64,000 nt of DNA from positions 46,128,001 to 46,192,000 of the forward strand of contig OX597833.1 in assembly GCA_951406725.2 (NCBI GenBank). Direction: 5' to 3'. Positions 3,151-54,537 of this stretch are shown one piece after another (within the stretch, counting starts at the first letter, position 1; each line of letters starts with the position of its first letter). Both the position numbers and the translations under genes were made by a program. The notes under the pieces are model-generated. The model had not been told where the DNA came from. It saw only the letters and a list, made by a program, of their open reading frames with translations, and did no database searches. This DNA comes from Octopus vulgaris. Taxonomy: Eukaryota.

Positions 3151-3957
3151 AACCCCCCTAAAAAAAAACACATAGTAAATGATCTACGAGCACTTGAAAA
3201 AACTGAGTCCCCAACTAGTTCCATTTGCTATAAAGGTTTACAAGGCACCAGCAGGCCCCAAGGAACACATTCGTGTCCATAGAACATGATTACCGCTTTA
3301 TTTTACTGAACGCTCATCTGACGTTCACGACAAGAGAATGCACTACATATGCACACACACACACACACACACATACACATACACACACACACACACACGC
3401 ACACACATATACACATATGCGTATATTCAGTAGAGTGCAACTTAAATTTCTTTGCAGTATTTAGCTACGTCTCTACGTCCTGCATTAAAAATCTGCGAGG
3501 GGCAGTTTATGTTTTCGTCTTTCTAGGATGGAAAAATTAGGAACTGGTCAGTATCCTTGCTCACTATAATTGATTAAACCACTAATTTATGGCATTTTGC
3601 CTACGTTAGAAACCACCAGTATCATCTAGTATTATTTGTATCTTTTATAAATACAATTTTATCTTGACGTAAAAGTCTTAAGATGTGTGGTTGAAATACC
3701 TGATCTAATTTTCTGTAGATAAAATTTGACGTTAATTTCTAAAGATTCTGCTACGATTCTGTTCTTTATAATAAAAGGATTATTAAAGTGAACAACAGCT
3801 ACGAAACAACAATCTCAATACCAGCGGTTGGCCATAGATATCTGTCTATATTCGTTACAATTACTTACAGATTCCAGAGGTAAATGCTGCCCGATAAAAA
3901 CAACACCAGACCACCGTTACGAGATAGCCAAGAATAGTTTTTGTGTTCATAGATAAG

Positions 3958-4050: not shown

Positions 4051-4694
4051 CTTATATACTTACATACACATAAACATACACACATGCATACATATTTACA
4101 TACAAGTGTGTATGTGTGTATATATGTATGTATGTTCCAAAAAGTCGCCATTACGGCGCCGTATATATTTTTATGCGTCTGGAGTAGTAATAAAAATAAT
4201 GTTTCCCAATATAAGCACAAGCCTCAAATATTGGTGGGGATGAGGTAGCGGTATTGTATATAGAGGGTGAAATGACAGAGTCGCTAGAGCGCCTTATGGA
4301 ATACAGTAGTGGGTCCGGCTCTCTGAGTTCAAATCTCACCGAGGTCAACTTTGTGTTTTATTCTTTCAGAGCCGATTTCATTTTTTCCTACTTTCTTTCC
4401 ACCTTTAATCTTTCTTTCTTTCCACCCTTCATTCTTTCCCTCCTTTCCTTCCTTCTTTCTGTCTTTATTTCTCTCCTTCTCTAGCTACCCCTCTTTTTCC
4501 TCTTCTCTCTTGGAAACGTCTACATTGCCTACAAGAAAAATCATGGAGGACCGCTTCTAGTATCCCTTTCTGTAGAAGCGGAGAAGGGGTCAACGAATAC
4601 TAGCAACCTGTTCTCACAGAAAATAAATAAATTAATAACTGTAAATTAATTAATTAATTAAAATAGCTAATAATAAATATCTAATGTACTATAC

Positions 4695-5021: not shown

Positions 5022-5283
5022 TTCCTTGCACAAGGGCCGAAATTTTGGGGGAGGGAGCCAGTCGATTAGATCGACCCCAGCACGCAACTGGTACTTAACT
5101 TATCGACCCCGAAAGGATGAAAGGCATAGTCAACCTCGGCGGAATACCTATTTCTTTACTGCCCACAAAGGGCTACACACAGAGGGGACAAACATGGACA
5201 GACAAACGAATTAAGTCGATTATATCAACCCTAGTGCGTAACTGGTACTTATTTAATCGACTCCGAAAGGCTGAAAGGCAAAG
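5022..5283 (-). mobile_element. SINE B tandem fragment (tail-2 unit joined to tail-1 unit)
   Basis: Two core motifs ATCGACCCCGAAAGGATGAAAGGC separated by the TATTTCTTTACTGCCCAC module. Confidence 0.8.
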
Positions 5284-5463
5284 TTGGGTAACATCGGTGG
5301 TGTGGAGAGGGGAGGCTGGTATACATGGGTGACTGCTGTTCTTCCATAAGACTTGTGCCTCCGAAGGTAACTTCTTAGGTACAATCATGAATCAAAATAT
5401 ATTTGTCACTAAATAAAATTATTTATAACATGAACATATAGTAATATTCCACTAAGAGTTTAA

Positions 5464-5678: not shown

Positions 5679-6217
5679 AATATTTCACAAAGAGCCAATA
5701 GCAAAGTCTAGTTTTTAAAAAGCGGTTACTATTAAGTTAAATGCTTTCATAAAAATCAGTGATCATGCGACCAGTTTGTAAGACCTATTGAGCAGTCCTT
5801 TGAAAGCTCATTGCCATGTATTTTGTTAGCAAGTCTGGTAAAATATTCTGTTCTCTTGAGAATCAGTAAGTGTGTAACTAATTTGTAAAACATTTCAAAT
5901 ACTCCACGAAAACCAGTGACTTCGTGTTCCAAATGTAAATCAGGTTAAACATTCTTTTGAGAGACGTTAATTGTATTCTTGGAGTGTAAAACAAATAAAA
6001 CTTGTAGAAATCCCAAGGAACTATAGATAATATAGAAACCATTTGTTCTATATTTCTGAAATATGTTTTTGATAAAGAAATGTTTTAAAACTGAATAAAT
6101 AGCTATTTGCGCTTCAAGTGTAAGTTTGGGAGAGCAGGAAACAAGCAGGGTAAACTAGAAATAGACCGGAAGAAGACAACAGGAATCAGAAAGAAAAAAG
6201 TATAAACTACAGATAAT

Positions 6218-6799
6218 GGTTTCAAATTTTGCCACAAGGACAGCCATTTTTGTGGGAGGGGATTAGTCGATTACATCGACTCCAGTGTTTCACTGGTACT
6301 TAATTTATCGACCCCGAATGGATGAAAGGCAAAGCTGACCTCGGAGGGATTTGAACTCAGAACGTAACGACAGACGAAATACCTATTTCTTTACTACCCT
6401 CAAGGGGCTAAACACAGAGAGGACAAACAAGGACAGACAAACGGATTAAGTCGATTACATCGACCCCAGTGCGTAACTAGTACTTAATTTATCGACCCCG
6501 AAAGGATGAAAGGCAAAGTCGACCTCGGCGGAATTTGAACTCAGAACGTAGCGGCAGATGAAATACCCATTTCTTTACTGCCCACAAGGGGCTAAACATT
6601 GAGAGGACAAACAAGGACAGACAAACGGATTAAGTCGATTACATCGACCCCAGTGCGTAACTAGTACTTAATTTATCGACCCCGAAAGGATGAAAGGCAG
6701 AGTCGACCTCGGTGGAATTTGAACTCAGAACGTAGCGGTGGACGTAATATCACAAAGCATTTCGCCCGGCGTGCTAACGTTTCTGCCAGCTCGCCGCCG
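6218..6799 (-). mobile_element. SINE B trimer (one head, three cores, ~184-bp unit)
   Basis: Tail-2 junctions at ~6384 and ~6568; three cores; single head at ~6799. Confidence 0.9.
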
Positions 6800-10353: not shown

Positions 10354-10359
10354 CCTTTC

Positions 10360-11178
10360 TACTGGAAGTACAAGGCCTCAAATTTGGGTGAAGGGATTAA
10401 TTCGATTGCATCGACTCCAGTGCATAACTGGTACTAGTTTTATCGACCCCGAAAGGATGAAAGGCAAAGTCGGCCTCGGCGGAATTAGAACTCAGAACGT
10501 AGCGAACTGGCGAAATACCTATTTCTTTACTACCTACAAAGGGCTAAACACAGAGAGGATAAACAAGGACAGACAAACGGATTAAGTCAAATATATCGAC
10601 ACCAGTGCGTAACTGGTACTTATATAATCGACCCCGAAAGGATGAAAGGCAAAGTTGACCTCGGCGGAATTTGAACTCAGAACGTAGCGGCAGACGAAAT
10701 ACGGCTACGCATTTCGCCCGGCGTGCTAACGTTTCTGCCAGCTCGGCGCCTTAATAATGATTTCAAACTTTTGCCACTGCTCAGCCATTTTGGGGGAGAG
10801 AATGTGTCGATTACGTCGACAACAGTATTCAGCTGGTACTTTTATTGACCCCGAGAGGATGAAAGGCAAAGTTACCTCGCGGAATTTTAACTTAGAATGT
10901 GCAAAGAGACGAAATACCGCTAAGCATTTCGCCTGGTGTGCTAACGGTTCTTATTTCTTTATTGCCCATAAGGCGCTAAACATAGACAGACAAACAAGGA
11001 CAGACAAACGGATCAAGTCGATTATATCGACCCCAGTGCATAACTGGTACTTATTTAATCGACCCCAAGAGGATGAAAGCCAAGGTCGACCTCGGCGGAA
11101 TTTGAACTCAGAACGTAGAGGCAGACGAAATACTGCAAAGCATTCCGCCCAGCGTGCTAACGGTTCTGCCAGCTCGCT
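10360..11178 (-). mobile_element. Cluster of SINE B units (dimer 10360-10751, then 10760-11178 composite)
   Basis: Repeated cores; tail-2 junctions at ~10520 and ~10951. Confidence 0.85.
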
Positions 11179-23081: not shown

Positions 23082-23520
23082 TATTTCTTTATTGCCCTCA
23101 GGGGGCTAAACATAGAGGGAACAAACAAGGACAGACAAACGGATTAAATCGATTACATCGACCCCACTGCGTAACTGGTACATATTTAATCGACCCCGAA
23201 AGGATGAAAGGTAAAGTCGACCTCGGTGGAATTTGAACTCAGAACGTAACAGCAGACGAAATATTTATGTCTTTACTACCCACAAGGGGCTAAACACAGA
23301 GAGGACAAACAAGGACAGACAAAGGGATTAAGTCGATTATATCGACCCCAGTGCGTAACTGGTACGTAATTTATCGACCCCGAAAGGATGAAAGACAAAG
23401 TCGACCTCGGGGGAAATTGAACTCAGAACGTAACTTCAGTGGTATACTATTCATCAACACCGAGAGGACGAAAGGCAAAGTCGACGTGTAAGGGTTTAGA
23501 ACCTAGAGCGAAGAGAGCAA
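23082..23520 (-). mobile_element. SINE B multimer ending in tail-2
   Basis: Two tail-2 units plus a decayed third core. Confidence 0.85.
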
Positions 23521-38136: not shown

Positions 38137-38482
38137 TATGTTTCTTTATTAGCCACACAGGGCTGCACACAGACAGAACAAATTACAAGGTAGAGCTTTT
38201 CTTTTGGGGGTAAAAAAAAGGGGGGTTGGTTTTCGATCAAAAGGGATCGTAAAAGGAAAGAAAGAGGACAAAAAAAGGGGGAGAGGGAAAAGAAAAAAAG
38301 AAAAGGGGAGAGGAAAAAAAGTTGATCAATAGGGATCGTAATCACAGAAATGTCAATATGAAGTGTAAAGGGGAGGACAGGTGAGGTTTACCCGTGGAAA
38401 GAAAAGCCTACGGAAAATACCACGGTAACCTCGGTCAATGAAGTCACATGTTATATTTCTTTCTTTTAATTTTTTTTTTTGC

Positions 38483-38484
<2 letters not shown>
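38137..38484 (-). mobile_element. Retroelement 3' end within (TAGA)n, tail similar to SINE B tail-2
   Basis: Minus strand ends TGTGTGCAGCCCTGTGTGGCTAATAAAGAAACATA then (TCTA)n; TAGA repeats on both sides. Confidence 0.55.
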
Positions 38485-38574
<90 letters not shown>

Positions 38575-47827: not shown

Positions 47828-48591
47828 CGCGTTCTTGAAGAAAACAGAACTTTTGTAGTATACCTTTGCTGAATTTCATGACAAGTGTGGACATGATGAA
47901 ATCAAAATACCAAGGCTCCTTTTTATTTATTTCTTTATTTTTTCAATTATCTTTTGTGCGCGCGCGCGTATTTGTGTGTGGGAGTGAGTGAGTGAGTGAG
48001 TGGTGTATTTTTCGAATTCTTTTCGTCTCATACAATGGTGGGGGCAAAAAAAAAAAACTGAATAAAAATCTGAAATGAGATAACCAAATACAGAGCCGAG
48101 ATAATTTTCCGAAATAAATATGCAATAAATTACACCCTCACTACGTTTCAATCGCTTTGATCTCCGTTTCCCATAAGGTATCTAATTCTTGGATGTGTGC
48201 ACAGCAATGGATCAAATTCTAATTTGGAATCTTTATTTCTAAACCTTAGGATCTTAATACTCTTATCCTGCCCGTATGTATTCCTATTAACAACGCTGGA
48301 TAAATTTTATTTCAAAAGACGAAGACTGTCAAAAGAACAGAAAGAACGACTTTACATTTTCTGGCATACAGTCCAGTGTCTCACCGTTCTAATCTGACTT
48401 AGGTCTTCGCCGTTCTTTAGTTTATATGACGTAACTGTCAGTAAATGCTGTTATGATATGAAAGTATTCCATGTGTTTTAAGCATTGTTGAGAATTGTTA
48501 TATTATTTTACAAGTAAAATAAACAATAGGAAGAGGAAATGGATAGATTGTTACATGTACTTGGTTTGTATATCATTATACATGATTTGAA

Positions 48592-48963
48592 AAGCGGTGA
48601 ACTGGTAGGATCATTAGCACGCCAGGCGAAATGCTTAGCGGTATTCCGTCGGCTGTTACGTTATGAGTTCAAATTCCGCCGAGGTCGACTTTGCCTTTCA
48701 TCATTTCGAGGTCAATAAATTAAGTACCAGTTACGCACTGATGTCGATATAATCGACTTAATCCGTTTGTCTGTCCTTGTTTGTCCTCTACTAATAAAGG
48801 CGGCGAGCTGGCAGAATCGTTTACACGCCGGGCGAAATGCTTAGCGGTATTTCGTATGCCGTTACGTTCTGAGTCTAAATTCCACCGAGGTCGACTTTGC
48901 CTTTCATCCTTTCGAGGTCGATTAAATAAGTACCAGTTACGCACTATATAATCGACTTAATCC
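48592..48963 (+). mobile_element. Two adjacent SINE B copies
   Basis: Heads at ~48592 and ~48799, each followed by a core. Confidence 0.85.
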
Positions 48964-52333: not shown

Positions 52334-52630
52334 GCCGCTAAGCTGCCAAAACACTGAATTAATACTCAAAGTCAAGAATACGGCTTCCTTTTCGTGTTTA
52401 GAACTAAGGACAATTGACGCAAATTGTTTAAACGAGTATATATAAAATGAATATAAAAGTATTCTTGTTTTTTTTTTTATCGTATGGAATTTCCCATAAA
52501 TTGAATGATAGCTAACTTGAGGCTGTTGAAAATTGTTGTATTATTTTACAAGTATAATAAACAATAGGAAGAGGAAATGGATAGATTGTTACATGTACTT
52601 AACTTGTATATCATTATACATGATTTGAAA

Positions 52631-53273
52631 GGCGGCGAGCTGGTTGAATCGTCAGCACGCCGCGCGAAATACTTAGCGGTATTTCGTCTGCCGTTACGTT
52701 CTGAGTTCAAATTCCGCCGAGATCGACTTTGCCTTTCATCCTTTCGGGGTCGATTAAATAAGTACCTATTTCTTTACTACCCACAAGGGGCTAAACATAG
52801 AGGGGACAAACAAGGACAGACAAACGGATTAAGTCGATTACATCGATCCCCAGTGCGTAACTGGTACTTAATTTATCGACCCCGAAAGGATGAAAGGCAA
52901 AGTCAACCTCGGCGGAATTTGAACTCAGAACTTAACGGCAGACGAAATACGGCTACACATTTCGCCCGGCCTGCTAACGATTCTGCCAGCTCACCGCCCT
53001 AGATTAAATAAGTACCAGTTACGCACTGGGTTCGATATCATCGACTTAATCCGTTTGTCTATCCTTGTTCGTCCCCTCTGTGTTTAGCCCCTTGTGGGTA
53101 GTAAAGAAATAGGTATTTCGTCTGCCATTACGTTCTGAGTTCAAATTCCGCCGAGGTCGATTTTGCCTTTCATCCTTTCGGGGTCGATAAATTAAGTACC
53201 AGTTGTGTACTGAGGTCGATCTAATCGACTGGCCCTGCCACCAAAATTTCGGGCCTTGTGTCTAGAGTAGAAA
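52631..53273 (+). mobile_element. SINE B dimer with an antisense SINE B (52767-52998) nested in it
   Basis: TSD GATTAAATAAGTACC at 52752-52766 and 53002-53016. Confidence 0.92.
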
Positions 53274-53279
53274 AGTTAC

Positions 53280-54106: not shown

Positions 54107-54537
54107 GGATCTTTTCGGTTTGAACGGCAGTTTTTTCTAGCGGTATCATATGAAATTGTCACCCATAATTATGACCCTAGAATCGATCTATTGCATTTCA
54201 ATCTCTTTTAGGGTTAGGGTTAGTTAGGGTTAGTTAGGGTTAGGGTTAGGGTATCTTTTATTCTTCACAAATGTAAATAAACTCAATCTGTTTCTTAAAC
54301 AAGGGACATATTCATACGGCACAGAATGCTTTTTAACTCAATAGACGTCACTGATTGATTGACATTGCAGAAATTGAAGAAAAAAAAACAACAAATATCT
54401 TACAAACTATAGAATTTTCTCAATAAAGCCAAGAGAAAAATATATTTTATAAACACATTCTACCAGTATAGGAAGTTTCAAATTTTTTAGTTACCTAGAA
54501 ATTATGTTAAAAACTGCCGTTCAAACCGAAAAGATCC
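54107..54537. mobile_element. MITE with 29-bp perfect TIRs, 8-bp TSD and internal TTAGGG repeats (Merlin-like)
   Basis: GGATCTTTTCGGTTTGAACGGCAGTTTTT / AAAAACTGCCGTTCAAACCGAAAAGATCC; TSD GAAAGCAG at 54099-54106 and 54538-54545; superfamily inferred from GG ends and 8-bp TSD. Confidence 0.88.

Follow-up and report, generated by a model that had tools for sequence, protein, structure and literature searches.

A non-LTR element has been regarded as target-specific when more than 20% of its flanks fall in one repeat type (PMC4494074), and the accessible text of that source describes several target-specific APE-type LINEs that, like the octopus elements described here, are aimed at repeats (Tx1L in Tx1D, Keno, Kibi, and Koshi). 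The closest known system, SINEU-3 and Tx1-Mar of crocodilians (Kojima 2015, PMC4494074), resembles ours in that a SINE and Tx1 LINEs have a common target in another repeat, with a duplication of about 16 bp, tandem SINEs formed by sequential insertion, and a preference that is weaker in the SINE than in the LINE. The octopus SINEs OR1 and OR2, which the accessible text of two papers names as CORE-SINEs (PMC4824008, PMC4758252), are tRNA-derived octopod SINEs, as the present family probably is. The octopus repeat annotation reports active L1-Tx1 families, and its main text contains neither "target" nor "nested" (PMC13282606).

The locus studied here (52631-53275) lies in a 64-kb window of Octopus vulgaris contig OX597833.1 (46,128,001-46,192,000) and belongs to a SINE family with three tail types on one body. 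The sequence-only reading had described a complete SINE with the second tail type (tail-2), lying antisense within another copy of the family, flanked by a perfect 15-bp duplication and adjoining GGTACTT, and our inspection confirms each of these points. The outer SINE begins with its head (52631..52677, plus strand), which may be a tRNA-derived Pol III head, as it contains motifs that by eye look like A and B boxes; ARAGORN and Rfam each gave 0 hits. Twitch is another tRNA-derived SINE of octopods to which the family may be comparable, and the family may also resemble the Meta domain, the conserved central domain of the MetaSINE or CORE-SINE superfamily. Behind the head, the 5′ part of an outer tail-2 unit starts at the sense target site GGTATTT (52678..52766, plus strand) and contains the first copy of the 15-bp target-site duplication (52752..52766, plus strand). 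The inner tail-2 SINE is a full-length element of 233 bp with the CCGT head variant, inserted antisense at GGTACTT (52767-52999, minus strand), and two extra bases (53000..53001, minus strand) separate its 5′ end from the second copy of the duplication (53002..53016, plus strand). The duplicated 15-mer is identical at both flanks, GATTAAATAAGTACC, and reads GGTACTTATTTAATC on the strand of the inner element. The 3′ part of the outer tail-2 unit follows (53017..53111, plus strand), including a tail-2 at 53046-53111 that is similar to the 3′ ends of Tx1-type LINEs, and the locus ends with the body and tail of an older SINE of type tail-1b (53112..53275, plus strand), which was entered at GGTATTT and appears to be the original host. 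The simplest order of events would be a tail-1b insertion first, a sense tail-2 insertion second, and the antisense tail-2 insertion last.

A look-alike at 48486-48789 was considered as an empty site and rejected, as its SINE part (116/136 identical) is no closer than unrelated copies. A 107-bp unique flank occurs twice, 4 kb apart (48486-48592 and 52524-52630, 101/107 identical), and both flanks run into a SINE head at the same point, with the two SINE parts being no closer than unrelated copies. None of the contigs of four public runs spans the locus, other SINE copies swamping them, and an empty allele was not seen. A short TTAGGG-like repeat run was also seen nearby, within another repeat element (54200-54255).

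Nine complete tail-2 ends are present in the window, and six of them adjoin the sense GGTATTT site: at 5149 (where a deletion follows), 6384, 6569, 10520, 23266 (mutated), and 53111. The remaining three adjoin the antisense GGTACTT (52767), the sequence AGAA(C)CG, which is a second self-site located in the SINE head (10952), and unique DNA (23082). Both exceptions that had been listed, at about 10951 and 23082, have the tail variant CAAT in place of TAGT. On the minus strand, a one-headed array at 6215..6798 (left end approximate) consists of a head, two tail-2 units, and an older tail-3 host body, and a head, one tail-2 unit, and an older tail-1 host body make up 10357..10753 (left end approximate). 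Also on the minus strand are a 5′-truncated tail-2 unit joined to a tail-1 host (5029..5284), a CAAT-variant copy that meets the second self-site within a tail-3 host's head (10806..11177), and two tail-2 units, the last a CAAT variant that ends in unique TA-class DNA (23082..23434).

Across the whole 2.8-Gb genome, we found 51,481 exact 28-base tail-2 ends, and GGTATTT directly follows 22,349 of them (43%), far above chance. In loci not chosen for tail-2, 73/79 GGTATTT junctions sit in a sense SINE, so that roughly nine in ten of the 22,349 junctions lie inside one, and the self-targeting proposed from the window alone is real. About 40% of all tail-2 flanks therefore fall in one repeat (22,349/51,481 × 73/79), placing tail-2 among target-specific elements. 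The next base is not G after 13,219 ends (mostly T among 100 matches listed); G is followed by another base than G at 4,527, GG by another than T at 1,609, GGT by another than A at 2,118, GGTA by another than T at 2,632, GGTAT by another than T at 3,156, and GGTATT by another than T, by subtraction, at 1,871. Approximately 55-60% of tail-2 ends are located outside the SINE, one quarter being at TA-rich sites, which indicates that the targeting is relaxed. The preference for GGTATTT holds outside SINEs: with site numbers scaled from 100 stretches of 10 kb (1 Mb) at hand-picked round coordinates, which makes the rates rough, and with exact tails only, some mutated sense junctions being included in the low-match classes, use per 1000 non-SINE sites climbs through 0.011, 0.044, 0.25, 1.4, 2.7, and 3.1 for sites matching the self-site in 2-7 bases. 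The sense self-site itself is used at about 70 per 1000 sites, a figure inflated by array growth.

The tail-2 element is short, non-coding, and present in very high copy number, with variable-length duplications and 5′ truncations, as is the case for a SINE mobilized by target-primed reverse transcription. An exact duplication of at least 9 bases was found for 81 of 166 headed tail-2 elements; in 58/81 it begins exactly at +1, right after AAAGAAATA, while a single mismatch between the duplication copies or a short slip is seen in most of the remaining 23. The median length of the duplication is 14.5 bp (n = 54). The 5′ duplication copy itself starts with (G/T)(G/A)TA in 25 copies from unselected loci; the preference for GGTATTT thus belongs to the target, and the idea that GGTATT is merely copied from the RNA can be ruled out. 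The junction GAAATA-GG-TATTTC forms a short inverted repeat. The fold of the whole SINE is unremarkable (z -1.3), although a local hairpin places the target site at its tip.

We consider it probable that a young, LINE-tailed SINE subfamily inserts at a fixed nucleotide in its older relatives, likely through the endonuclease of a Tx1-type LINE, the antisense copy likely being off-target. What we observe is the fixed end AAAGAAATA, a target that starts with the motif, duplications of about 15 bp, hosts older than the inserted units, and a LINE with endonuclease and reverse transcriptase remnants at the same site. A LINE protein would bind the SINE tail, nick before GGTATTT, and start reverse transcription at the fixed end of the tail. 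Where the host lies in the sense orientation, the cDNA made in this way would match, anneal to, and replace the host head, yielding a head, a 184-bp unit, and the old body, without a visible duplication. Precise 5′ joining via a heteroduplex of cDNA and target with upstream homology has been proposed for R2 and R1 in the accessible text of two studies (PMC3774820, PMC2718515). Annealing of this kind to the host head would fit the sense events that we counted, where one head is seen in 91/95 and the host head, duplication, and new head are all kept in 4/95. Every sense event would leave two usable sites, and local duplication would then also enlarge the arrays. In an antisense host or in unique DNA, such annealing is impossible, and the whole copy and its duplication would therefore remain, as at 52767-52999; the flagged antisense copy is an exception in which the duplication stays visible. 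Read-through transcripts into the next unit might also pair with the nicked strand and bias the choice of nick, a step that we hold more loosely than the others.

The sequence-only reading had suggested searching for an autonomous LINE with the same tail and insertion site, and a LINE with endonuclease and reverse transcriptase, which we call LINE-S, does occur at the same nucleotide. LINE-S was located by searching for foreign tails at the SINE target site; its tail has 112 matches, and among the first 100 listed, 85 are on the SINE site, 3 are unclear, and 12 are off it, judged by eye, with the last letter of the pattern missing some off-target ends and 10 rows possibly being SINE variants. 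These 85/100 listed flanks are well over 20% in one repeat. A full-length but broken copy (L441), flanked by a 15-bp duplication, occupies the junction of an array; in Pfam, its reverse transcriptase scores above the cut-off and its endonuclease just below, and it is 46-60% identical to a sister LINE family associated with (TATC)n. We assign LINE-S and its sisters to the L1/Tx1 type, from the domain order, the lack of poly(A), and the target specificity, although a named Tx1 reference was absent among 37 homolog matches and a homolog search with a fragment of L441 gave no match. Among named proteins, one from Argonauta comes closest to a LINE of this genome (55% identity).

LINE-S may mobilize tail-2, given that the two share the insertion nucleotide and the length of the duplication and are 85% identical in their last 34 bases (38/62 aligned positions agree overall). 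Several observations count against this partnership. The resemblance is limited to about 35 bases, and another element, LINE-B, is closer to tail-2 (51/63); the CAAT variant, whose tail is nearest to that of LINE-S, is rarely at the LINE-S site (0/20); LINE-S is far stricter in its site than the SINE; and CGTATTT is found at 46/85 on-target LINE-S junctions versus 219/~22,500 for tail-2. The (TATC)n-associated family, with 2,129 exact ORF2-end matches and a (TATC)n end in most of 30 loci, has an ORF1 and an ORF2 with Pfam Exo_endo_phos, RVT_1, and zf-RVT, its best solved match being L1 ORF2p, and its tail agrees with tail-2 at 39/64 positions. This family is young, with long open reading frames (L348, L361, L372, L214), and a 3′ UTR fragment from a Tx1-type LINE associated with (TATC)n, with an end that resembles tail-2, is present in the window (38140..38490, minus strand, limits approximate). 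Further L1/Tx1-type elements with tail-2-like ends were also seen, among which the L277 sister family showed no clear target.

LINE-B targets GAG, the coding part found for it is unlike ORF2, and it forms arrays of 143-144 bp at a GAG site within its own 3′ UTR (L426-L439; G000:C1:195532743-195533064, G000:C21:42753798-42754984). Matches to an exclusion pattern, used in search of the exact donor of tail-2, were for the most part LINE-B and SINE copies with mutations or truncations. No element other than tail-2 was evident at the SINE head site among 100 listed of 190 matches, and a LINE for that site was accordingly not found. LINEs from a reverse transcriptase family search that we assume to be CR1-like and RTE-like were rejected as donors, their ends matching no SINE tail; a very young family with 949-aa open frames and an (ATT)n end (L312-L340), presumably CR1-like, is unrelated to the SINE tails. 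At one LINE-S end (L446:1523-1540, G000:C1:130171051), only about 15 bases of SINE target sequence precede unrelated DNA; these bases could have been copied from read-through RNA, or they could be a duplication caught ahead of a further long insertion.

Tail variants that are 1-2 bases apart prefer different sites, each of which is the junction of its own array: CAAT uses AG(AAA) sites, whether in the head of the SINE or in unique sequence, and rarely uses GGTA, which is the site of TAAT and TAGT. This raises the alternative, which we consider unlikely, that nicking is loose and that the site is set mainly by an inherited 3′ read-through extension of the RNA pairing with the nicked strand, so that a lineage targets whatever sequence lies behind its master, and landing in its own family starts a self-amplifying loop. 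In agreement with it, AG(AAA) adjoins 9/20 CAAT ends versus 3/93 TAGT ends (p = 5e-6), GGTA adjoins 0/20 versus 64/93, and the 5′ duplication copy itself starts with AG in 8/20 fetched CAAT loci with an exact match. Similarly, TA-class copies have a distinct haplotype (14/31 vs. 5/90, p = 2e-6), free LINE-B copies with the array-type last base are at GAG in 20/27 cases versus 8/39 (by eye), and one LINE-S copy (L447) shows C at +1 where the consensus of its tail-1b-type host reads G; there is also precedent in the accessible text on R1Bm and SART1 (PMC7265360). However, CAAT copies are older (0.049 vs. 0.031, p = 9e-4), so that successive LINE partners could explain the shift in site, and extension bases are seldom copied into the genome, with few clear cases among 23, and among 19 none was a free tail-2 copy carrying a long stretch of such bases. 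We rank targeting by an endonuclease first, given that LINE-S keeps strictly to its site and that copied extension bases are rare, with RNA guidance as a probable modifier of target choice. The broader idea that target choice is written in RNA and inherited, such that any element with this Tx1-type tail homes on the sequence behind its master, is possible but doubtful. If true, self-insertion would run away, the two SINE self-sites, the LINE-B self-site, and the microsatellite classes would all be explained, and the system would be a natural reprogrammable insertion tool. CAAT tail-2 ends also repeatedly adjoin AGAAACTGAAAG in another repeat family (G000:C1:21176709, 22150041, 22287864, 22301955), some of these loci probably being duplicated ones.

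The second alternative, that the arrays are mostly derived from one or a few multimeric masters or from tandem duplication of DNA, with self-targeting being minor, appears very improbable. The prediction that the multimers might prove to be one fixed dimeric master was examined through the ages of their parts, and both the hosts and the flanking duplications turned out to be older than the tail-2 unit. Non-CpG divergence from the respective consensus is 0.038 for tail-2, about 0.085 for tail-1b, 0.133 for tail-1a, and about 0.134 for tail-3. In tail-2/tail-1b composites, the host body is the older part in 31/40 pairs (0.083 vs. 0.046, p = 4e-4), the divergences of host and tail-2 unit are uncorrelated (r = -0.11), the hosts show private mutations, and their bodies have diverged to the same degree as free tail-1b copies (0.082, n = 47 vs. 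0.086, n = 15; p = 0.53). The duplications that flank these composites start with AATAT, as do those of tail-1b itself, and with a filter of at most 3 mismatches in 12, which about 9% of shuffled pairs also pass, their mismatch is 0.132 in composites (19/32), 0.139 in free tail-1b copies (6/15), and 0.051 in tail-2 monomers (75/128). The age and duplication data thus contradict, and largely refute, a master or duplication origin for the tail-2/tail-1 composites; that free tail-2 copies favor the same motif and that a LINE uses the same nucleotide also speak against it. Hosts older than the upstream unit, together with the old duplications that are kept, indicate insertion in place, with the host head usually replaced (91/95); the heads of composites are mostly of the tail-2 type. 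A search where the first unit begins revealed no concealed duplication of the host. A tail-2 unit is present in 16/27 tail-1b copies, with GGTATTT, versus 8/77 tail-1a and tail-3 copies, with GGCATTT as the consensus site (p = 1e-6), a contrast that is confounded with age. An earlier notion that CCGT heads are immune was dropped, as the +1 junction base may derive from the RNA and the insertions overwrite the heads of their hosts.

What does favor multimeric masters or duplication is found in arrays composed of tail-2 only, where neighboring units share variants over the whole unit above the level of shuffles, the duplications are young (0.070), and long regular arrays occur (10 units at ~185 bp). 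The sharing of variants indicates that local duplication, or movement of whole multimers, also contributes to these arrays, alongside the insertion in place that we prefer. At G000:C1:7184656-7185976 (L100-L103), a 264-bp tandem array of the whole SINE with its flank reflects duplication at the DNA level and is unlike the 184-bp arrays. Antisense self-insertions at four loci (L044, L045, L057, L060) have inverted structures resembling twin priming, with an inverted piece of host sequence attached to the new copy.

The third alternative, the sequence-only model taken verbatim, in which a single endonuclease for GGTAYTT uses both SINE sites alike, is hardly credible: 25/30 GGTACTTA junctions, the class of the flagged locus, do lie within an antisense SINE, most with a duplication beginning at the same base, but this share is near expectation because SINEs are the most common supplier of that 8-mer (150/205 sites in the sampled stretches), and the sense self-site is used about 100-fold more per site than the antisense one. 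The target preference put forward in that model therefore stands, and its GGTAYTT motif does not, since a C at the fifth position is strongly disfavored (GGTACTTA follows 332 of the 51,481 exact tail-2 ends, vs. 22,349 for GGTATTT), and the per-site rates, though rough, exclude a symmetric motif; these rates refute the model as a whole unless the site counts are wrong by some 100-fold. The antisense SINE site is used at 0.66 per 1000, barely above the 0.36 per 1000 for the same 8-mer outside SINEs, and the flagged antisense copy is thus likely an off-target event, cut at a similar sequence.

A LINE aimed at its own passenger SINE closes a loop in which the passenger makes the landing sites, and this explains tens of thousands of one-headed SINE arrays. 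As young heads overwrite old ones, the dating of SINEs and their subfamily trees are blurred, and tens of thousands of natural insertions can be used to separate endonuclease recognition from RNA-DNA pairing. In the literature searched, whose coverage left out Repbase reports and subscription journals, we found neither a SINE-targeting LINE nor self-targeting of this kind. Tandem arrays of SINE parts are found in the SINE-derived satellites of squamates (PMC10702118) and the tandem SINEs of bivalves (PMC11481361); however, recombination between neighboring copies is invoked for these, and the accessible text describes neither a fixed insertion nucleotide nor a targeting LINE. R1 arrays, too, arise by repeated insertion at one site, and in R1 and R2, upstream homology of the cDNA gives mostly precise 5′ joints, with duplications in a minority (PMC2718515, PMC3774820, as far as their accessible text goes), but their target is rDNA and the elements are autonomous, whereas in octopus the homology is supplied by the SINE's own head. 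As with Tx1L, Keno, Kibi, and Koshi, there is a (TATC)n-associated sister family in the octopus genome; in contrast to them, the octopus target is a passenger SINE, and the passengers show several classes of site (PMC4494074, accessible text). In SINEU-3/Tx1-Mar, the target is a Mariner DNA transposon (PMC4494074), while in octopus it is the SINE itself, so that new targets arise with every insertion, and the duplication is usually lost in sense events because the host head is replaced. The system is real, genome-wide, and mechanistically coherent, and it extends Tx1-linked target specificity to a case where the passenger serves as the target.
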